Source: Escherichia phage kaset
Length of the DNA: 64,000 nucleotides
Strand: one strand, 5' to 3'
Sequence record: PV245935.1
Shown: piece by piece, positions 6,585 through 46,534 of the stretch
Position numbering within the stretch: the first letter of the stretch is position 1
Layout of the letters: each line of letters starts with the position of its first letter
Made by a program: the position numbers and the translations under genes
The notes under the pieces: model-generated
Seen by the model: the letters and a program-made list of their open reading frames with translations, nothing else
Told to the model about the DNA's origin: nothing
The model's database searches: none

Positions 6585-6589
6585 ATCGC

Positions 6590-6960
6590 CTGGCAGTGGA
6601 TTGCCGCAGGATTTTACGCGTATAATGACGTATCATCCGTATCAAGTAAGTAGTTGTTTTCAAAAGAATCTTACGGATGATACGGATGATACGCGTTGCC
6701 GCGATACTTTATAGGAATTCAAATAAATTAATTTAAAATTATATATCTAATTTAATTTTATTTTTTTATAAACTCTTATATATGAAAAGTATCCGTATCA
6801 TCCGTATCATCCGTAGCACACCAGTGATAGCGCGGCTTATACACCGATACGGATAAAAATACGCCTCATTTTATCCGTATCATCCGTATCACACTAATTA
6901 AGGCGCGGCTATATCGGTTGTTATACATATTCAAACCATAATTATTGTTTGCCTAAGTTT
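6590..6960. repeat. noncoding region with 9-bp ATCATCCGT/ACGGATGAT repeats in both orientations plus CGTATAATGACGTA box (copy A)
   Basis: tandem copies at 6631-6644, 6672-6695 (inverted), 6791-6816, 6872-6890; a ~45 bp core is nearly identical to 58758-58800. Confidence 0.7.
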
Positions 6961-6977
6961 TTTTCATTAGATATAAT
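6949..6977 (+). promoter_or_regulatory. sigma70-like promoter upstream of protease/scaffold gene
   Basis: TTGCCT-N17-TATAAT, 24 bp upstream of ATG 7001. Confidence 0.4.
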
Positions 6978-7000
6978 ACACAATACTTATTTGAGGGTGG

Positions 7001-31669: not shown

Positions 31670-32530
31670 TTAAAACTCTTCTGCGTCGGTCGGAGTTTCA
31701 TTGACAGGACCAGCGGCACCACTTGCTTCTTCCTGCTTGCTGCGGTCAATGTTAACGTTGCCGCCAACTACGTCGTTGTGGAACGCTTTGGCGACTTCGT
31801 ACAGGCCTTTGTCCTGCACCAGACCTTCCAGCTCAAACTTCAGGACGGACCAGGTGTTGCCGTCTTTGGACTGAGACGCAGTACCCATGCGAACGATGTT
31901 CATGAAGGTCGGCGGCATTTTCAGGCCCTGCGGAGTCTGAACTTTCTTCTGCTGCAGCGCGGTCATCAGCATGCGAGACGGCTTGATCATGGAAGAAGTC
32001 AGAGACAGCATTGCGCTACCAAATTCACCAGTTTCTTCGTTCAACAGGATCACAAAGTGGTTACGTGTATCTGCGTAGTAAGGTGATTTCTTCTCGTGCA
32101 CCTTGCCGTTTTCGTCTGGAACAAACACCTTACCGTTGATCTCAACAGCGCGGCCTGCCGCGACTTCTGCATCAACGTGCTCTTTGGTAAATTCACCTTT
32201 AAAGCCTTTATCGTCGGACTCGCGACCGCCCCAAAGGATGAAGGTGCGTTTGAATGCACAAGGGATGATCTGCACGCCTTTCTTGCCGTCATACAATTCA
32301 CCAGTAACGGTATTGTACAACATACCAGCTTTTGCGCCAGGAACGTGTTTTGGATCATCTTCGTCGACCATCGGAGACATCTTTTGCAGTACGACGATAA
32401 AAGGAATGGCATAAGCGTCGGCATCGGCACCTTCAAAACCAGCGCCAAAATCGGTCATATCGACAAAATCAGCCATAGCGGACATCTGGGTGTTTTTCAC
32501 TGCAACTTCGGTAGTTTCTTTCTTAGACAT
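31670..32530 (-). CDS. putative ssDNA-binding protein (acidic C-terminal tail)
   Basis: 286 aa ending in acidic tail ...ETPTDAEEF, as in T7 gp2.5-type SSBs; within replication module. Confidence 0.35.
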   Translation of the reverse strand: MSKKETTEVAVKNTQMSAMADFVDMTDFGAGFEGADADAYAIPFIVVLQKMSPMVDEDDPKHVPGAKAGMLYNTVTGELYDGKKGVQIIPCAFKRTFILWGGRESDDKGFKGEFTKEHVDAEVAAGRAVEINGKVFVPDENGKVHEKKSPYYADTRNHFVILLNEETGEFGSAMLSLTSSMIKPSRMLMTALQQKKVQTPQGLKMPPTFMNIVRMGTASQSKDGNTWSVLKFELEGLVQDKGLYEVAKAFHNDVVGGNVNIDRSKQEEASGAAGPVNETPTDAEEF

Positions 32531-33533: not shown

Positions 33534-35057
33534 TTAATTCATCTTTTTGCCGTCGAGGATGTGATCAGCAAGCATAGACTTCATACTTAGTGAACGCTGA
33601 ATTTCTTCATCGATGGTGTCAACACCAATAAAATCAACATACAACACGCTTGATTTGGTGCCGATGCGGTGATTTCGGTCTTCGGATTGCTTGCGCAACT
33701 CGTTGTCGTAGTTGCAAGAATAATAAATTGCCAAGTCAGCGGCTGTAAGCGTGATGCCGATGCCTGCCGCAGCAGCGTGGCAGACCAATACTTGTGTTCC
33801 ACCATTCTCGACTGTGTTTTTCTGGAAGTCATCAATCAAGAACTCACGCTGCTCTTTTGACGTTTCACCGTTGTATACACCCGTGACCACGCCTTCAGAC
33901 TCAAGCCAATCCTTAATCTGGTTCATCTCTTCCTTAAAGATGGCCCAAACAATGAACTTGCGCTCTGGGTCGTCTTCCAGCACCCCTTCCACATAATCCT
34001 TAAAGGCCGTGAATCGTGGGTTGTCTTCCATGTAGACCATCTCATCATACACCTTAACAAAACCGGATGTCACCTGCTTCATCTTAGTGCGCGACGCGAT
34101 CATCTCAAACTTGACGTTTTCTTCTTCGCCCTTGTATTCCATCAAATAGTTGTACTCATTCTTGAGTTCATCGTAAACATCGCGTTGTTTAGGCGACAAC
34201 TCGAAGTCAATAAACTTGTACACCTTCTCTGGAAGGTCAGGCAAGTATTCTGCTTTTGTTGCACGAAAATAGTGCGGTTCCATCAGCCGGATAAGCTTGT
34301 CAAGGTTCTTGTACATCGGTCGGCCAAACTGGTCTTTGCGCGGCACTTGCGGAATCCCATAGCCATTGCCGCCGATTTTCTTGAGGATGGCTTGCATCTC
34401 TGGGTCGTGCGCTTCAAGCAGCACAGTGAATTCAGAGTTGAAGGCGCGGAAAGATTTGGTGCCGAGCAATCCTGCTTCAAGGAAGTGATATTGCATGTAA
34501 ATATCAGCAGGCGAGCGCGGCAACGGCGTGCCAGAAAGGATTCGACGGGCCTTTGCCAGCCGTCCCAATTCCACAACCTTGATGGAGCGTTTGGCTGTGT
34601 TATTCTTGATGCGCGTTGATTCGTCGATGATCATCAGGCAGCGGTACTTCTTCAAGACCGACTCGATGTGTTGATAACCGACTGGTGTGTTGACAGTATC
34701 GATGTTGAATGAGAAGATGCGCGCAGGCACTTCGCCTTCGGGGTAGTGATCAGCAAACATCTTCTCCCAAAGCGCCTTGCCCTTTTTAGTTTTCATCTTA
34801 TCATTGCCGCGCCAGTAGTGCCCAATCCACTTGATGGAAAGGTGTTCTGGTGCTTCACGACGAATCCAGTTTGAGTGGACGCCGTTTGGAGCGATGACGA
34901 CCATGGCATCGAACGCGCCAGCGGTGAAGTGCTTTTCAAACTCTGCCAAAGCGGTCCAAGTTTTACCAAGACCCTGTTCCATAAAATAGGCAAAGTATTT
35001 TCTGCGGCCTGCTTTATCAAGCGCCAATAGTTGGTGGCGCATTCCTTGTGTTTTCAT
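33534..35057 (-). CDS. SNF2-family (DEAD/DEAH-like) helicase
   Basis: 507 aa; GLGKT Walker A, IIDESTRIKN DExx box, LSGTPLPRSP motif, C-terminal QSEDRNHRIG. Confidence 0.75.
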   Translation of the reverse strand: MKTQGMRHQLLALDKAGRRKYFAYFMEQGLGKTWTALAEFEKHFTAGAFDAMVVIAPNGVHSNWIRREAPEHLSIKWIGHYWRGNDKMKTKKGKALWEKMFADHYPEGEVPARIFSFNIDTVNTPVGYQHIESVLKKYRCLMIIDESTRIKNNTAKRSIKVVELGRLAKARRILSGTPLPRSPADIYMQYHFLEAGLLGTKSFRAFNSEFTVLLEAHDPEMQAILKKIGGNGYGIPQVPRKDQFGRPMYKNLDKLIRLMEPHYFRATKAEYLPDLPEKVYKFIDFELSPKQRDVYDELKNEYNYLMEYKGEEENVKFEMIASRTKMKQVTSGFVKVYDEMVYMEDNPRFTAFKDYVEGVLEDDPERKFIVWAIFKEEMNQIKDWLESEGVVTGVYNGETSKEQREFLIDDFQKNTVENGGTQVLVCHAAAAGIGITLTAADLAIYYSCNYDNELRKQSEDRNHRIGTKSSVLYVDFIGVDTIDEEIQRSLSMKSMLADHILDGKKMN

Positions 35058-38956: not shown

Positions 38957-39508
38957 TTATGCAGTGTACGGAGTGCCGTCTTGATTCAACCGCACGATGA
39001 ATTTAAGGTCTACACCGATGATTTCACGCGTATCAAAGATCACATAGTTGTAACGACGCTGACCAGCAATATTTGGGTTGGTGTGAGAGTCAGTTACGAC
39101 TTCCTGCGCAACCTGAATGCCTTCTTCTTTAAAGAACTTACGCCATTCAGCAAGTTCAGCGACAGTCACGTGCATACCAAGATGGCTGACCTGATTATCG
39201 TGCGCATCGAGCATGTCGATGTTTTCGTTGATCCAGTTGCAACCTTTTGTGTAGTCAAGAATTTCAAGTTCAAGAGGCTTGCCAGCGCCGCCATCGGTGC
39301 CGTTGCCAGCCTGATAGTTGAAGCGCAAGTCAGCTTCATTGGTGCAATCGTCGCGACGACCTTTAAATTCATCAGCTTCAAATACGCGACCAGTAGCAAC
39401 AACATGATCATGGAACCATTCTGTCAGGCCGATTTTGGCCAGAAAATCCTGTGCACGCTGAGCATCTGGAATTGACAGGGCGATTTGTTCAATTTTAAAG
39501 TGTGGCAT
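38957..39508 (-). CDS. hypothetical protein (possible VOC/glyoxalase-like fold)
   Basis: 183 aa; tentative fold assignment from His/Glu spacing only. Confidence 0.3.
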   Translation of the reverse strand: MPHFKIEQIALSIPDAQRAQDFLAKIGLTEWFHDHVVATGRVFEADEFKGRRDDCTNEADLRFNYQAGNGTDGGAGKPLELEILDYTKGCNWINENIDMLDAHDNQVSHLGMHVTVAELAEWRKFFKEEGIQVAQEVVTDSHTNPNIAGQRRYNYVIFDTREIIGVDLKFIVRLNQDGTPYTA

Positions 39509-39528
39509 TTTGTTTCCTTAATTAAATA

Positions 39529-39744
39529 TTATTGATTAATTACTGTGTTGTCTTCGTCCTGTTTCTTTTCAGGAGCGGGTGTGACAACTTCAAATTTAGG
39601 TTTGGGCAATTCACCTTTAGCACCTGGGACTTCAACGACAATCTTTTTGTCAGGCTCAACAGGATTTGGAACTTCAAATTTGATCGTGTATCCTAATACA
39701 ACAAGAAGCACTAAACCGATTACCGCTACCCAGGCTTTGTTCAT
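39529..39744 (-). CDS. small membrane-anchored protein
   Basis: 71 aa; N-terminal TM helix AWVAVIGLVLLVVLGY then Pro/Lys/Glu-rich tail. Confidence 0.4.
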   Translation of the reverse strand: MNKAWVAVIGLVLLVVLGYTIKFEVPNPVEPDKKIVVEVPGAKGELPKPKFEVVTPAPEKKQDEDNTVINQ

Positions 39745-39747
39745 GAT

Positions 39748-40431
39748 TTATTTCCCAAATGGAATATCAGTACCAGACATAAAGCGCCATGCGCCCGTAA
39801 TTAAGATATGGCGAATGAAGTCAGCAATTACTTGCGGCTCAGTCTCCAATCCATTCATCAACGCCTTTTTCTGGTATTCAGCAGCATACTCAGGAGTCCA
39901 GCCGCGAGTCGCGCAAACAGCATCTTCAATCTGTTTAGACATACCAGTGCCGCGCAACTTGTTAGGACTAATAGAGAATACCGTGATCCCGTATTTAGGC
40001 GTAAGTTCGTGGGCCATCTGCTTACTGATCATAAGCGCAGCGGCCTTGGAAGCATTATAACACAAGCTGGACGTCATAGGAATATGCGCAGCGTTGGAAA
40101 CGATATTGATCACAAAACCTTTGTTGTCGATAAGACTTTTCAGTGTCGCCTGAGTCGTGTTAACGAAAGAGAAAGCGTTGGTATGCATAACGCGGTTAAA
40201 TTCTTCGTAGTTGACATCTTCAAACCAGTTGTTGGAGTTTACGCCAGCACAGTTGATCAAGCCTTCTACATCATATGGGCTTAAAATTTCTTTCATCTGT
40301 TTAGCGTCGCGGACGTCATATCCGTATGCTGAATCGATGCCAAGCACGTTATGACCGTAAGCGCCAAGGGTGTCAAAAATAGATTTACCAAGACCAGAAT
40401 TGGAACCTGTTACAACAATTACTTTTTTCAT
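39748..40431 (-). CDS. short-chain dehydrogenase/reductase (SDR)
   Basis: 227 aa; Rossmann motif VVTGSNSGLGKS, NCAGV, catalytic YNASK (YxxxK). Confidence 0.75.
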   Translation of the reverse strand: MKKVIVVTGSNSGLGKSIFDTLGAYGHNVLGIDSAYGYDVRDAKQMKEILSPYDVEGLINCAGVNSNNWFEDVNYEEFNRVMHTNAFSFVNTTQATLKSLIDNKGFVINIVSNAAHIPMTSSLCYNASKAAALMISKQMAHELTPKYGITVFSISPNKLRGTGMSKQIEDAVCATRGWTPEYAAEYQKKALMNGLETEPQVIADFIRHILITGAWRFMSGTDIPFGK

Positions 40432-40452
40432 TTATTTATCCTTTTTGGACTT

Positions 40453-40486
40453 CGTTTCGATGAGATAAATATAACTCATCGAAACG
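40453..40486. promoter_or_regulatory. perfect 12-bp inverted repeat with AT-rich loop
   Basis: CGTTTCGATGAG-ataaatataa-CTCATCGAAACG between HAD and SDR genes. Confidence 0.5.
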
Positions 40487-40496
40487 CACAAGTAAA

Positions 40497-41369
40497 CTAT
40501 TTATTGAAATTAATATTGTGGGTGTTGACGAGACGTTCACACATGGCGCTGTAAACACCATCATCGTGTATAGAGTCTTCGTGCTTCAGGCCGCTGATTG
40601 CGAAGCGTGTAAGCTTGACAATCTTAAGCTCGAACAGATGCCACATGTGGTAGTCTTCCGGCGTTTTCAACGTTACGCCATTAGGGAAAAGCACCTGCAT
40701 AACCTGGCCAACCATCACGGCGTTATCGCCATAGACAGCGTTGCGCTCACGGAAGGTTGCCGCCATTGCATCAAGAATATCGGCGGCAGTGGCCGGAGAT
40801 TGTTCAATTTCCACAGCCTTAGTCTCTTCTTGCCCTGTTGCGCTTGGATCAATTGCTAATTGTTGCACCACTTCACCTGCCTTGCAAAGATTAAATGTAA
40901 AAGCGATTTTATTTTGAGCAACGGAATTATAATACAATGCTTCATCTTGCATCCGCGCGAGCACGTCTTGTCGGTCGTCGAATACATTGATGATTCGATA
41001 ATCGCCGTGCCGCAATGCGTGCGATAGCCATGCAGATTTCATAATAGTTGATGGACGTTTGTCGCCATAGTCTCTCATCTTGATTGTAAATTCATCAAAA
41101 GGAAAAACATTGTCCAGACGTTCAAAAGTCACTTGTCTGTATTTTTCTGGCCTTGCAGTCCAATATTCAACCGCCTCACCGCGAAGAGATGCCGACTCTA
41201 CTGCTGATGCAATGTGAGGATAGAACTGATCATAACCAATACCGCTGTGATAGTCATCATAGTCTGACAACGGACCTGCCACCTTGATGCGGTCTAAGCG
41301 CCAACGGTCATCAAACAGCGTTCCGTCAAGGTCGAATACGTTTAAGATTTCGCTGTTTTTAATGCTCAT
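40497..41369 (-). CDS. HAD-superfamily phosphatase-like protein with C-terminal extension
   Basis: 290 aa; motif I FDLDGTLFDD, later VFDDRQDV; C-terminal ~130 aa of unknown function. Confidence 0.5.
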   Translation of the reverse strand: MSIKNSEILNVFDLDGTLFDDRWRLDRIKVAGPLSDYDDYHSGIGYDQFYPHIASAVESASLRGEAVEYWTARPEKYRQVTFERLDNVFPFDEFTIKMRDYGDKRPSTIMKSAWLSHALRHGDYRIINVFDDRQDVLARMQDEALYYNSVAQNKIAFTFNLCKAGEVVQQLAIDPSATGQEETKAVEIEQSPATAADILDAMAATFRERNAVYGDNAVMVGQVMQVLFPNGVTLKTPEDYHMWHLFELKIVKLTRFAISGLKHEDSIHDDGVYSAMCERLVNTHNINFNK

Positions 41370-42211
41370 CCTTTTGATACTCCATCTTTAGCGACTGGAT
41401 TGTTGGTGATTGGCATCGCACTCCAAAACTGGATGCGCAACTCTTCTTGCTGTGCCGTGGTATCCATCCAATCACGATACCAAGGGCAATGTGCTTTACC
41501 GTGACGGGGAAATGCGCACTTACCCATACCGATGCATTGCGGCTGTAGTAAAGGATTAGCCCAAGGGTGCACCTTGAGGACTTCCGCAACCATTGCACGA
41601 AATACTTCTTGATACTCGCCTTGAGTGCGCGTGCACAAGCGGTTTGACGCCATCTGCTGCAGCGTGCGCAAGTTGAACTTTGCCATGATATGCGTTTGCA
41701 TATTAGAAGGCAACACGGCACGTGCATCCTGAATCTCTGCGCCAGCCGCGCGAAGTTCTTGGTATAGGGCGTCAATGGTTGCCATTGCATCATCCCACTT
41801 CTCTGCCAGCACACTTCTTTTTTCAGAGTCCCAGTATCCTTCTTCATCCTGGTCGAAAAAGTCTTTTTTACCAAGATCATCTAAACTATCAAAATCACCA
41901 TCCCTTTCAAATGCCTTCGGACGAATTGCATCAAACGCAGACGACTCCTGAGCGCGGCTAGTGCGTTCTTGATATGCGCCTGTGCGTGTGCGCACCATCT
42001 GATGGGTCATGTTCTTTGAAACATCAGTGATGTCAAAGATATAGTCCACAAAGTCAAAGGGCGACTTGATTGTATCAAGCATGTAGCGCCAGTGCTCTTG
42101 CTTCTCTGATTCTGTCATCTCAGAGACAGGCTTGCCAGTCATGCGCGTGTTCTTTGTTTCCAGCAAAAGGTCAAGTGCATCTTGGGTGTATCGAATTAAT
42201 TCAACTTTCAT
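41366..42211 (-). CDS. thyX: ThyX-like flavin-dependent thymidylate synthase (variant RTR motif)
   Basis: 281 aa; VRTRTGAYQERTSR aligns with the ThyX signature RHR-x7/8-S but with His replaced by Thr. Confidence 0.55.
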   Translation of the reverse strand: MKVELIRYTQDALDLLLETKNTRMTGKPVSEMTESEKQEHWRYMLDTIKSPFDFVDYIFDITDVSKNMTHQMVRTRTGAYQERTSRAQESSAFDAIRPKAFERDGDFDSLDDLGKKDFFDQDEEGYWDSEKRSVLAEKWDDAMATIDALYQELRAAGAEIQDARAVLPSNMQTHIMAKFNLRTLQQMASNRLCTRTQGEYQEVFRAMVAEVLKVHPWANPLLQPQCIGMGKCAFPRHGKAHCPWYRDWMDTTAQQEELRIQFWSAMPITNNPVAKDGVSKG

Positions 42212-42225
42212 TTTAATTATTCCTA

Positions 42226-42672
42226 TTAACGGTAATTCACTAATTGCTGATCACCAGAGAAGGTGCAATGATAAACGAATTGTGCGTTGTAAAGCAACTG
42301 AAAACTTTTCTTTGGTTCACTATTAGCACTCATCGATGTGAATACTTCTGCACCGGAACGGTTTTCACCAATCAGATTGATAAAGCCGCCAGTTGAACGA
42401 GGTTGAACGAAAGTGAAACGTTGCATCCACGGAGTCCGGTTGGCACCTTTACCCGTGAATCCTTGAATCTGAATATTCAGACCTTCTTGCTCATTCACAC
42501 CGATGTAAGTGGTAATCTTCGCACCAGTCGTTGCTGCGGTCTTGCCGTCCATCGCTTCGCAATCGTAAACAGCGATTGAATCGGAAGTACGGATGGCAGC
42601 TTCAGTCGCTTCCATATACATGGTGCCGAGAATAGCAGTTGCGGCAAGCGCGATTCCAGTGATTCGTTTCAT
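42226..42672 (-). CDS. secreted protein of unknown function
   Basis: 148 aa; signal peptide MKRITGIALAATAILGTMYMEATEAA. Confidence 0.5.
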   Translation of the reverse strand: MKRITGIALAATAILGTMYMEATEAAIRTSDSIAVYDCEAMDGKTAATTGAKITTYIGVNEQEGLNIQIQGFTGKGANRTPWMQRFTFVQPRSTGGFINLIGENRSGAEVFTSMSANSEPKKSFQLLYNAQFVYHCTFSGDQQLVNYR

Positions 42673-42689
42673 TTCGTTTCCTCTATGAG

Positions 42690-42730
42690 TTCTGCTTCAA
42701 TGATTAAAGTATACGCCCATTGAAGCAGAA
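42690..42730. promoter_or_regulatory. perfect 13-bp inverted repeat
   Basis: TTCTGCTTCAATG-N15-CATTGAAGCAGAA; loop contains TATACT; directly upstream of secreted-protein gene. Confidence 0.5.
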
Positions 42731-42736
42731 AGCAAA

Positions 42737-43732
42737 TTATTTATTGGCAATATAAGCAAATTTTTGATAGTTATTTGCTTTGATGAGTTTTTCAACTTCA
42801 ACAAGGTCATGAGCGACGTCATCAAGCAAAATGTTGCGCCAGGTAGCGAATCGACCAACACTAAACACGTTCAAATCCATAGTCAGCTGCAGGAGTAGGG
42901 CGTGTCGCAAGTCTTTCGGAATGTCGACAATCTTGCCATATTTCTGGTCGACCTTTTCAACTTCTTCAAGAGCAATGTCACTCCATGAAAGGCCAAAGGC
43001 CGTCAACACTTCGTCGACTTCTGCGCGAAGCTTTATGTCACGGTAACGAGTGATGCCGCCAGCGGCTTCAACTGCAGCTTCACTTACGCTGACCAAAGGA
43101 ATTGTTTCAATGATAAGCGTGTCACCAGTAATTGATGCGCGGTAAGTTCTGACTGAGTAGTCAGGGAAGTAAATTGTTTGATACAACTCACACTTACGTT
43201 TAATCTTAAAGCGGTAAACACGAATGTTTGCTTTATCAAATGAGAAATCAAGCTTTTGATCAATCCCAGCAAGCTTCAGCATGACTGGCAGCGGCGATGT
43301 GTTGATGATTGGCGTCTCGCTATAGCCGCAAAGAGTATCAACCGGAGTATTAAAGAATATGCGGTCACCCAGTTTGTCGACAAGCTGATCATAAAAGTCA
43401 TCAGGCGCAATATAACGCGTTGCAGTTTTAAGCTTCATGATTGAACGGCTGCCAAACTGATTGGTGACCTTCATGGAATACATATTGGCAAGGTTAATTG
43501 GGCAATGGTCGTGGTAGTAGTTGCCGCGAAAATACACAGCCTTGTCAACTGTCACGGCCTTAAAGGGGATTCCGGTAATACGGCTTACTTCTTCGCCACG
43601 GAAGCGTAGCAACGCCTTGTGCTGTTGCGCCCGTTCCCCTGCTTCGTACACAATAGAGTTCGGGAAGTGACACGCTGTGATAAGTCCTGCCAGTCCGCCG
43701 CCGATAATCATTACAGGTTGTTTCATGTTCAT
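42737..43732 (-). CDS. FAD/NAD(P)-binding oxidoreductase
   Basis: 331 aa; N-terminal dinucleotide-binding motif VMIIGGGLAGL. Confidence 0.5.
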   Translation of the reverse strand: MNMKQPVMIIGGGLAGLITACHFPNSIVYEAGERAQQHKALLRFRGEEVSRITGIPFKAVTVDKAVYFRGNYYHDHCPINLANMYSMKVTNQFGSRSIMKLKTATRYIAPDDFYDQLVDKLGDRIFFNTPVDTLCGYSETPIINTSPLPVMLKLAGIDQKLDFSFDKANIRVYRFKIKRKCELYQTIYFPDYSVRTYRASITGDTLIIETIPLVSVSEAAVEAAGGITRYRDIKLRAEVDEVLTAFGLSWSDIALEEVEKVDQKYGKIVDIPKDLRHALLLQLTMDLNVFSVGRFATWRNILLDDVAHDLVEVEKLIKANNYQKFAYIANK

Positions 43733-43810: not shown

Positions 43811-43837
43811 AAAAAAGACCCACAACAAGTGTGGGTC
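43811..43837 (-). terminator. Rho-independent terminator after KAE-rich protein gene
   Basis: minus strand GACCCACAcuugUUGUGGGUC then UUUUUUC. Confidence 0.55.
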
Positions 43838-43864: not shown

Positions 43865-44710
43865 TTATTCCGCTTGATCACCGTCTTCGGCATCGTCGTT
43901 GGATTCAACATCGACAAACTCGATGTGGCCCATCTCTTCCAGCTTGCTCAGGTAGGAGCGAACGGAAGCGCCAAACAGTTGATCTTTAACTTTTTCGCCC
44001 AGCTCATCGATAGACTGCGCCACGCCAACTTCGCCTTCTTTGATCGCCGCTAGAACGCGTCCACGGGTGGAATGCTCTTGCGGCTGGCTCAGGCCATTGC
44101 CAGTGTAGATGAAGTGGGTTGCTTTTGCACGACGCTGACCGTTTGCCTTTTTAGCAGCCTTACGTTCTGCGATGGCTTTGCGACGTTCTTCAGCTTCTTG
44201 CTTACGCTGTTCTTTCTGCTGTTCTGCAGCTTCTTTTGCCGCAATCTTAGCAGCTTCACGCTCTGCCTTGCGTTTCGCTTTAGCTTCTTCTTTGGCCTTC
44301 TCTTTTTCGGCCTTCGCTGCAGCACGGGCTTGATCACGCTCTGCTTTCTTAGCAGCAGCTTGTTCAGCTTTCAGGCGCTTGGCTTCTTCTTTAGCCTTTG
44401 CCTTTTCGATTTCTTTCGCTGCTTTAGCGGCTTCACGCTCTGCTTTCTTAGCAGCAGCCTTTTCTGCGCGCTCTTTGGCCTTCTTAGCTGCTTCTTCAGC
44501 ACGCTTCTGAGCCTTCTCATCAGCAGCCTGCTTGCGTTTCAGTGCAGCTTCTTCACGCTTGGCTTGTTTTTCCTGCTCACGCTTCTGGCGTTTTTCTTCG
44601 GCTTCTTTCTTTTTAGCCAGGCGTTTTTCTTCAGCCACGCGACGACGTTCTGCTGCAGCTGCTTGTTTTTCTTCTTTAGATAATACTTTGATTGCTTCGG
44701 CCATGTTCAC
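43865..44710 (-). CDS. Lys/Ala/Glu-rich helical-repeat protein with C-terminal winged-helix-like domain
   Basis: 281 aa; ~200 aa of KAE/R-rich low-complexity helix (TolA domain II-like) then ~80 aa globular C-terminus. Confidence 0.55.
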   Translation of the reverse strand: MNMAEAIKVLSKEEKQAAAAERRRVAEEKRLAKKKEAEEKRQKREQEKQAKREEAALKRKQAADEKAQKRAEEAAKKAKERAEKAAAKKAEREAAKAAKEIEKAKAKEEAKRLKAEQAAAKKAERDQARAAAKAEKEKAKEEAKAKRKAEREAAKIAAKEAAEQQKEQRKQEAEERRKAIAERKAAKKANGQRRAKATHFIYTGNGLSQPQEHSTRGRVLAAIKEGEVGVAQSIDELGEKVKDQLFGASVRSYLSKLEEMGHIEFVDVESNDDAEDGDQAE

Positions 44711-44863
44711 AGTCCTTAAATAAATTAGTTTATTTTATATTCCCCGTTTGGGATAACTTAATTATGCCTTCAGTCGCCGCCAGTAGCAACTAAAAACTCT
44801 GGCGGCAATGCCACTTTAATTAAACTGATTTTCAGTTTTATTTTTCGTAAATTTACGTCAACA

Positions 44864-46374: not shown

Positions 46375-46477
46375 TTCAGGCGACCTTTGTTAGTGCGGAA
46401 ATATTTTCTGATAGTATAATTGCAGATATAGTATAAAGCAAAGTAAATCGAAATTGTGAACTAAATGGTAAATATTG

Positions 46478-46505
46478 TTGACTTTGTATCACTCAATATT
46501 ATACT
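46478..46505 (+). promoter_or_regulatory. sigma70-like promoter for rightward early operon
   Basis: TTGACT-N16-TATACT, 30 bp upstream of ATG 46535. Confidence 0.45.
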
Positions 46506-46534
46506 GCAGGTATTGATCACCGAAGGAAAGAAAG

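Follow-up and report, generated by a model that had tools for sequence, protein, structure and literature searches.

A charged-helix, winged-helix-like protein encoded in the replication block of Escherichia phage kaset

A 279-residue protein encoded by Escherichia phage kaset raises the question of what a phage gains from a very long charged helix, and of whether the sequence of that helix has any meaning beyond its composition. The gene lies in the 64,000-nt stretch of sequence record PV245935.1 that was analysed here (the window). The source of the region is a Wifcevirus, an E. coli myophage, and its DNA is 94-98% identical to that of 28 Wifcevirus genomes (E. coli and Shigella myophages such as WFH, ECML-117, Mansfield and Bas98-101). 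The first-pass annotation had described a Lys/Ala/Glu-rich helix, a winged-helix-like C-terminal domain and an acidic tail; it had likened the helix to TolA domain II and to ER/K single alpha-helices (SAHs), and had proposed a role in genome organisation or as a molecular ruler. All three parts are present, as judged from composition and from AlphaFold2 models: the observation stands, and part of the interpretation is supported.

The gene and its expression signals

The features of the locus are collected in Table 1. The open reading frame can be extended to an in-frame GTG at 44710, two codons 5' of the ATG (ORF 43865-44710, minus strand). However, the ATG at 44704 is the likely start: it is preceded, 8 nt upstream, by AAGGA, and the same start is annotated in Mansfield and Bas100, where CPT_Mansfield_073 and Bas100_0052 have a start and a length equal to those given here. 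The choice of the coding strand is backed by the homologues, by the balance of synonymous and non-synonymous changes and by published peptides; a 203-aa ORF on the opposite strand (44072-44683) was rejected as a mirror artefact of the low-complexity coding strand.

Table 1. Coordinates of the features of the charged-helix locus and of a translocase gene of the same phage
Feature	Position	Strand	Basis or remark
Charged-helix/winged-helix gene, CDS, 279 aa + stop	43865..44704	minus	ATG at 44704-44702
Helix, residues 10-186 (177 residues, ~26.6 nm), predicted uninterrupted	44147..44677	minus	AlphaFold2
Linker, residues 187-196, conserved basic motif G-x-R-R-x-K-A-T-H	44117..44146	minus	alignments
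Winged-helix-like domain, residues 197-264	43913..44116	minus	strand, H1, strand, H2, H3, strand
Acidic tail, residues 265-279, predicted disordered, net charge -8	43868..43912	minus	low pLDDT
Ribosome-binding site, AAGGA	44713..44717	minus	8 nt before ATG; RBS annotated at the same place in Mansfield
Sigma-70-like promoter candidate, TTGCTA-17 nt-CATAAT	44761..44789	minus	consensus scan, 9/12 matches
Intrinsic terminator, stem GACCCACA / TGTGGGTC	43811..43837	minus	8-bp GC-rich stem, 5-nt loop, six T
SNF2-family translocase	33534-35057		same phage

On the upstream side, the promoter candidate (44761..44789) lies within the 159-nt gap that follows the helicase gene, a gap containing sigma-70-like sites (consensus matches only). 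On the downstream side, the terminator (43837-43811) lies 28 nt past the stop codon and is annotated as such in Mansfield; the orthologous genes of MTx and XcP1 also have their own annotated terminators. A further promoter-like site (again a consensus match only) is found beyond it. With promoter-like sites in the upstream gap, a terminator and then the next promoter-like site, the gene resembles an insulated transcription unit inside the replication block, in line with the earlier description of a gene with a terminator of its own.

Codon usage is marked. The fraction of E. coli-optimal codons, 0.711, is the highest of the 72 ORFs of the window, and all 25 Arg codons are either CGT or CGC. 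When codon optimisation was corrected for amino-acid composition (z = 5.1), the gene ranked third of 72, after those for the major head protein (7.5) and a Pam3_Gp34-family protein (6.0); the tail sheath gene scored less (4.8). The bias tracks the host: the E217 orthologue uses AAG, GCC and CGY, which fits Pseudomonas, and the optimal-codon fraction of the MTx orthologue is 0.69 versus 0.40-0.54 in neighbouring genes. Because strong codon optimisation suggests very high expression, we infer that the gene is very highly expressed, probably at the level of structural proteins.

A basic stripe on an 11-residue repeat

Residues ~10-188 are made up for 93-96% of K, R, E, D, A and Q, with 6% of hydrophobic residues and a net charge of +24. 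Structure prediction, which the first-pass annotation had proposed as a check, was carried out with AlphaFold2: with 24 full-length sequences, the model consisted of an unbroken helix (residues 10-186) followed by the winged-helix domain. Mean pLDDT per 10-residue block was 54 for residues 11-20 and 71-98 from residue 21 on; single-chain AlphaFold2 also renders coiled-coil proteins as one helix, so that the model is compatible with oligomers as well. At ~26 nm, the predicted helix is roughly as long as 78 bp of DNA.

The Lys/Arg residues of this region recur with a period of 3.68 residues, i.e. as an 11-residue repeat, and they remain in phase over ~170 residues (z = 14-17 versus shuffled sequences). 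A period of 3.68 kept in phase places the basic residues on one face of a helix. When the sequence is written in rows of 11, Lys/Arg occupy positions 2, 5, 6, 9 and 10, and Glu is mostly found at position 1. Six proteins, each from a different genus, were subjected to Fourier analysis (those of Wifcevirus, Pbunavirus E217, Serratia MTx, Burkholderia BcepF1, Xanthomonas XcP1 and Aeromonas Gekk3-15). All gave a single dominant K/R peak at 3.68-3.70 residues (z = 10-14 versus shuffles), with no power at 3.5 residues, the heptad value, or at 3.6; the phase drift was below 100 degrees over ~150 residues. The K/R peak near 3.68 was also the strongest in 20 of the 27 cluster representatives having an N-terminal region of at least 50 aa. 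Of two E. coli K-12 controls examined at 11/3, neither TolA domain II (z = -0.1) nor the IF2 N-domain (z = 0.8) came anywhere near the kaset protein (z = 17.3).

Acidic residues follow the same repeat, since both K/R and D/E carry it in the kaset protein. Like charges are enriched at +7 and +11 (z = +4.4 for K>K pairs at +11) and opposite charges are depleted at +11. The opposite-charge pairs at i/i+3 and i/i+4 are moderately enriched (z = +3.0 for K>E at +4 and +1.9 for E>K at +3), to an extent that varies by genus. On the AlphaFold2 model, the helix would thus be basic along the whole of one face, flanked by a face of acidic residues and Ala. A heptad coiled coil was rejected, neither hydrophobic residues nor Ala showing a significant 3.5 periodicity in any of the six genera. 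The region has the dense K/R/E, the few hydrophobics and the lack of a heptad pattern expected of an SAH, and its basic residues are one-sided along most of the helix, a feature of the KER type of CAF-1.

The pattern appears to have been kept by selection. The protein is 279 aa long in all six Wifcevirus genomes compared. Among them, codons 1-190 include 31 variable codons with synonymous changes only against a single non-synonymous one, and codons 191-279 include 22 against six, which points to purifying selection on the helix region. The E217 and 14-1 orthologues differ by one gap. Across genera, the helix region is mostly ~165-190 aa long, with a second class of ~130 aa and a longer class that has an extra N-terminal extension; the lengths cluster in this way although the sequences no longer align. 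The earlier description had named free length variation coupled to an unconserved C-terminus as the outcome that would speak against it; what was found is a length invariant within the genus and a domain conserved across genera. As to the origin of the 11-residue repeat, a recent DNA duplication was rejected, the gene being devoid of notable DNA tandem repeats (the only one is a weak two-copy 15-nt unit). The helix region is not plain low complexity; it carries a precise selected pattern. A sequence written off as low-complexity can therefore hide an exact pattern under selection.

Three kinds of known helices invite comparison. With E. coli TolA domain II, the phage protein has in common a K/A/E(D)-rich composition and a long predicted helix, and several GenBank records would make it a TolA-like envelope protein. 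The resemblance, also drawn in the first-pass annotation, turned out to be compositional only. There is no hydrophobic segment that could act as the TolA anchor (the maximal 19-residue Kyte-Doolittle mean is 0.61, and it is below 1.0 in all eight homologues). Pfam and NCBIfam gave no match to TolA domain III or to any other family, and the phage C-terminus is predicted to have a winged-helix fold instead. BLAST against E. coli TolA returned E values of 0.075 or worse, and nothing after low-complexity masking. The K/R period of TolA domain II is 5.3 residues versus 3.68 in the phage protein, with no TolA power at 3.67. Finally, the phage gene, unlike that of TolA, is without notable tandem repeat and of fixed length in the six Wifcevirus genomes. 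We therefore give practically no credence to the envelope-protein reading. The ER/K SAHs (of myosin VI/X, caldesmon, INCENP and drebrin) are closer in that they too combine high charge and few hydrophobics in a predicted isolated helix joined to a folded domain. The phage helix is nevertheless not a textbook ER/K helix, since it has 29% Ala, is net positive and arranges like charges in stripes on the 11-residue repeat. Helices of 11/3 periodicity, in which one face is kept aligned, are found in group 3 LEA proteins, apolipoproteins, alpha-synuclein and the ATP synthase b subunit. In these, the aligned face is hydrophobic or made of Ala and serves to contact lipids or to build right-handed coiled coils, whereas in the phage protein it is Lys/Arg that recur, and there is no hydrophobic signal.

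The C-terminal module, its family and its neighbours

AlphaFold2 applied to eight aligned C-terminal sequences gave a confident winged-helix-like domain (core pLDDT above 90), the same as in the full-length model, and a disordered tail. The modelled domain has the three-helix bundle and beta-strand wing of a winged helix, in the order H1, strand, H2, H3, strand, and the most conserved stretch of the protein, SVRSYLSKLEEMGH, corresponds to its helix H3. Foldseek found nothing significant in the PDB (best E value, 0.32) and, among viral structure models, matched only members of the same protein family. The winged-helix fold is thus supported, although it could not be assigned to a particular family of winged-helix proteins. 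Neither the C-terminal domain nor the helix, used as sequence queries against the PDB, gave a match, and Pfam and NCBIfam searches with the whole protein, the winged-helix domain and the distant homologues were equally negative. In the acidic tail, the last two 10-residue blocks had pLDDT values of 42 and 38 in the domain model and of 79 and 50 in the full-length model; a tail of this sort (net charge from -2 to -18) is present in most homologues.

Conservation in the C-terminal module is centred on basic residues. R192 is invariant, and R191 and T196 are shared by at least 90% of 24 diverse homologues. The polar residues that vary little or not at all are almost all Arg or Lys: they include R181, R191, R192, R214, R249 and K254, the last two in H3. 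No acidic residue reaches 90% conservation in that set of 24. Conserved Arg/Lys without conserved acidic residues fit a polyanion-binding surface. The winged-helix domain may accordingly be suspected of binding DNA, a suggestion to be set against the net charge of 0 of the module (residues ~190-264, linker included) and against the fact that many winged-helix domains bind proteins. The positive charge of the helix region is also weaker elsewhere, from +2 to +15 in many homologues, and the charge of the whole protein is near zero or negative in several genera (-4 for E217, -7 for Gekk3-15).

The protein matches PHROG 4765 (E = 2.7e-84 over residues 1-279; E = 1.7e-37 with the C-terminal 81 aa alone), a family without assigned function, so that membership says nothing about mechanism. 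A homology search with the C-terminal domain, another check proposed in the first-pass annotation, found it conserved in 356 GenBank phage records: 293 are from Pseudomonas phages (Pbunavirus), 26 from Escherichia phages and the remainder from phages of Serratia, Burkholderia, Xanthomonas, Pantoea, Erwinia and Aeromonas. The gene is a core gene across these records, mostly Pbunavirus, and no oddity of this one phage. An exhaustive profile search of 1.84 billion cluster representatives, on which the size of the family is based (word-indexed protein searches had given 4, then 9 matches), retrieved only 35 clusters, with the domain always C-terminal. A search with one peptide pattern in one genome each of 185,579 bacterial and archaeal species revealed no member, and the family was thus not seen in prophages; it is a phage-only family. 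Its GenBank labels are "hypothetical protein", "TolA protein" and, in many Pbunavirus records, "putative structural protein", a label of which Ceyssens et al. 2009 is the probable source. The "TolA" and "structural protein" labels mislead.

Gene order is conserved across genera: Dda-like helicase, gap, charged-helix gene, terminator, flavoprotein and ThyX, followed by a HAD/PNKP phosphatase, a short-chain reductase, a glyoxalase-like protein, an exonuclease and Pol III alpha. Among the IMG/VR loci, many of which are closely interrelated, the Dda-like helicase gene was directly upstream in 28 out of 28 and the flavoprotein gene downstream in 26 out of 28. Distant relatives are still within a RepB-primase/Pol III alpha block. 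One of them, P0037, has neither the charged helix nor the adjacent helicase and keeps the ThyX-to-polymerase block; another, P0016, keeps the helicase and the polymerase and is without ThyX. What the two have in common is the replication module.

Possible roles of the protein

A precedent for a basic stripe on a lone helix is offered by the KER region of CAF-1, a single helix crystallised at a length of 128 angstroms. Its authors report DNA binding by basic residues concentrated on one side, cooperation with a winged-helix domain carried by the same subunit, and a function as spacer and DNA binder at once; in their account, such a stripe has so far been seen only in KER (PMC10335832). Both proteins have a K/E/R-rich single helix with one-sided basic residues, a winged helix and an acidic region on the same polypeptide, a link to DNA replication, and a proposed role that combines DNA binder and spacer. 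They differ in several respects: there is no detectable sequence relationship; the order in the phage protein is helix, winged helix, acidic tail; the phage helix has 177 residues against 90, roughly double the length, is Ala-rich and is built on a strict 11-residue repeat; and the phage protein has no PCNA-binding motif or histone partners. CAF-1 KER is the closest working analogue with regard to how the protein may act, not to family membership.

By this analogy, the reading that we tentatively prefer, and which we consider quite possible if somewhat short of probable, is that of an abundant, non-enzymatic, cytoplasmic architectural protein of the replication module that binds DNA, or nucleic acids, non-specifically. 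The basic stripe would lie along double-stranded DNA with no sequence preference, as does the single helix of KER. The winged-helix domain would add a second, short DNA contact, or else contact a replisome protein, and the acidic tail would compete with DNA for the basic surfaces or recruit partners, in the manner of SSB and HMGB proteins. A large number of copies might then coat or space the replicating phage DNA, some of them possibly staying with the DNA or with virions. The basic stripe, the conserved Arg/Lys residues, the purifying selection, the codon optimisation, the adjacency to the helicase gene and the CAF-1 precedent all speak for such a DNA binder; the uncharged domain, the mild helix charge of many homologues and their near-zero or negative whole-protein charge speak against it. 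Position in the replication module and conserved helix length are also what a role in genome organisation or as a ruler, as put forward in the first-pass annotation, would lead one to expect, and this part of that proposal is supported.

Published mass spectrometry disagrees on whether the protein is associated with virions. In CsCl-purified vB_Eco4M-7, the orthologue was detected with 7 peptides, 25.8% coverage and a score of 1197.6 (1112 for the portal protein, by comparison), while in the ECML-117 preparation it gave 2 peptides and a score of 3.2, near the threshold; the vB_Eco4M-7 sample also contained a helicase and a glyoxalase-like protein, and that of ECML-117 an oxoacyl reductase (PMC7048862). 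The codon z values of the glyoxalase-like and reductase genes are 3.4 and 2.2, and the helicase gene is outside the twelve most optimised. The presence in the same preparations of non-structural proteins, in part codon-optimised, suggests a carry-over of phage proteins. In DNA-free ghost particles of Pbunavirus SCUT-S1, the orthologue was not among the 31 proteins found (PMC6521218). No reference to gp68 is made in the text of the E217 cryo-EM paper, and that of the Pa193 paper mentions neither gp68/gp69 nor any TolA-like or DNA-binding protein. A function as scaffolding protein of the capsid type was rejected, that role being given in the Pa193 paper to gp24, beside the capsid genes. The detection in CsCl-purified virions points to another, or an additional, role. 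We consider it unlikely that the protein is a virion-associated internal protein, packaged or ejected with the DNA and serving, for example, to protect or organise the incoming genome. Such a protein would account for the strong vB_Eco4M-7 signal and for the Pbunavirus label, and a DNA-bound passenger is expected to be absent from DNA-free ghosts; however, the suspected carry-over, the near-threshold ECML-117 result, the silence of the E217 paper and the location of the gene in the replication block, far from the virion genes, all count against it.

The other readings could each hold alongside one another and alongside the virion passenger. A rather unlikely one is that of an adaptor or spacer, in which the winged-helix domain and the acidic tail would bind a replisome or host protein (candidate partners being the neighbouring Dda-like helicase, the SNF2-like translocase and Pol III alpha) and the helix would set a distance of ~26 nm or act as a leash. 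This would suit a domain of zero net charge, a helix length that is held in most genera while sequences become unalignable and a strict adjacency to the helicase gene, and known SAHs are mostly spacers (PMC10335832). However, a pure spacer has no need of a phase-coherent basic stripe, kept in at least 20 clusters, structural-protein-level expression would be unusual for a replisome adaptor, and P0037 is without the adjacent Dda gene. Alternatively, the acidic stripe that adjoins the basic one could cause the protein to associate with itself: two-faced helices would pair into dimers, sheets, filaments or condensates that organise the replication zone. The occurrence of both K/R and D/E on the 11-residue repeat, the enrichment of same-charge and depletion of opposite-charge pairs at +11 and the probable very high expression agree with this scaffold, which we nonetheless hold to be improbable, as the helix has no hydrophobic seam or heptad signal and its net positive charge would oppose packing. 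Very improbable, lastly, is an RNA- or ribosome-binding protein that would influence translation or transcripts in the infected cell. RNA would be as good a ligand as DNA for a basic stripe, the protein is probably abundant, and the closest structural matches are the insert domains of MetAP2, Ebp1 and Arx1, which are located on ribosomes, and the RNA-binding SelB; these matches are weak, though (Foldseek E above 0.3), and the neighbourhood is one of DNA replication and nucleotide metabolism in every lineage examined.

A bolder version of the DNA-binding reading, and a distinctly unlikely one, is a chromatin-like system. The protein would coat replicating DNA in ~80 bp units set by the length of the helix, the SNF2-family translocase would clear or slide it, with the Dda-like helicase as co-actor, and part of it would travel in the virion and shield the genome from host nucleases or defence. 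Were this true, only one other single-helix DNA-binding domain would be known, and none other from outside eukaryotes. More generally, if the helix binds DNA, the single-helix DNA-binding class, so far limited to CAF-1, would be extended to phages, and with a long and regular natural example (177 residues on an 11-residue repeat); our literature search found no description of a phage single-helix DNA-binding protein.

Linker histone H1 also combines a winged-helix domain with a Lys/Ala-rich extension, its tail being disordered and without Glu. Phi29 p6, T4 gp32 and T7 gp2.5 show very high expression, a position in the replication module and an acidic C-terminus, with other folds. No homology to H1 or to these three phage proteins was found, and the Foldseek match to the globular domain of yeast H1 was insignificant (E = 3). 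Wifceviruses have been reported to replicate unusually fast, and, of the Pseudomonas phages, Pbunaviruses are some of the most widely used in therapy: the gene is conserved across a phage lineage of therapeutic use, in which it is probably expressed at the level of a structural protein.

Replaceable N-terminal region and the neighbouring gene block

The coordinates of the features considered here are collected in the table. In P0036 and P0037, two distant members of the target gene's family, the long charged helix gives way to a different, Pro/Gly-rich N-terminal region, for which no Pfam match was found. Both proteins retain the winged-helix domain and the location ahead of the flavoprotein-ThyX block, so that the charged helix is a module that can be replaced. 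On the strand opposite the target gene, an ORF of Phe/Leu/Ser/Cys-rich composition was rejected as a gene: its reading frame is an artefact that mirrors the K/A/E coding strand.

The block itself consists, in order, of a flavoprotein (phrog_4828, annotated as UGM-like), ThyX, a HAD/PNKP phosphatase, a short-chain reductase (FabG-like) and a glyoxalase-like protein, and is retained even by a distant relative. It looks more like a nucleotide or DNA-modification pathway than like plain dTMP synthesis.

Features discussed in this part, with window coordinates unless a locus is named
Feature	Position	Strand	Size	Details
Distant family members P0036, P0037	locus L017 8001-8594
Conserved flavoprotein-ThyX block	about 38957-43732	-		also loci L003-L009, L017
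Strong promoter-like sites, repeated	46375-46534, 61082-61304, 61608-61713			GCTTTACTT ... TATACT
SNF2-family translocase	33534-35057	-	507 aa	PF00176 (8.6e-22), plus Helicase_C
Non-coding gap	6585-7000		416 nt	dense ATCCGTATCATCCGTATCA-type repeats
Antisense ORF	44072-44683	+	203 aa
Pam3_Gp34-family protein	31670-32530	-	286 aa	PF23977 (4e-86)

A speculative partner protein and a candidate SSB

The SNF2-family translocase, usually annotated just as "DNA helicase", is conserved in a distant relative (L020), where it adjoins Pol III alpha. For its Pbunavirus orthologue, an Ino80- and CHD1L-remodeler-like fold has been predicted (Banzai paper). It is tempting to speculate that a DNA-coating protein could have this translocase as partner.

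The Pam3_Gp34-family protein shows the second-strongest codon optimisation within the window (z 6.0) and agrees in size with vB_Eco4M-7_70 (31.2 kDa), a protein detected by virion mass spectrometry in that related phage. The Wifcevirus phage Bas100 has no annotated SSB in the part examined (about 1-52 kb of 68 kb), which makes the Pam3_Gp34-family protein one candidate for the SSB role.

Promoter-like sites and non-coding repeats

The GCTTTACTT ... TATACT sites are located in divergent intergenic regions. The promoter-like site upstream of the target gene is weaker than these and unlike them, which suggests that the promoters belong to different classes. In the non-coding gap, located upstream of a gene annotated in Bas100 as head maturation protease, the ATCCGTATCATCCGTATCA-type repeats flank an AT-rich core on both sides; they may be iterons, or else make up an origin, a site for packaging or an array with a regulatory function.
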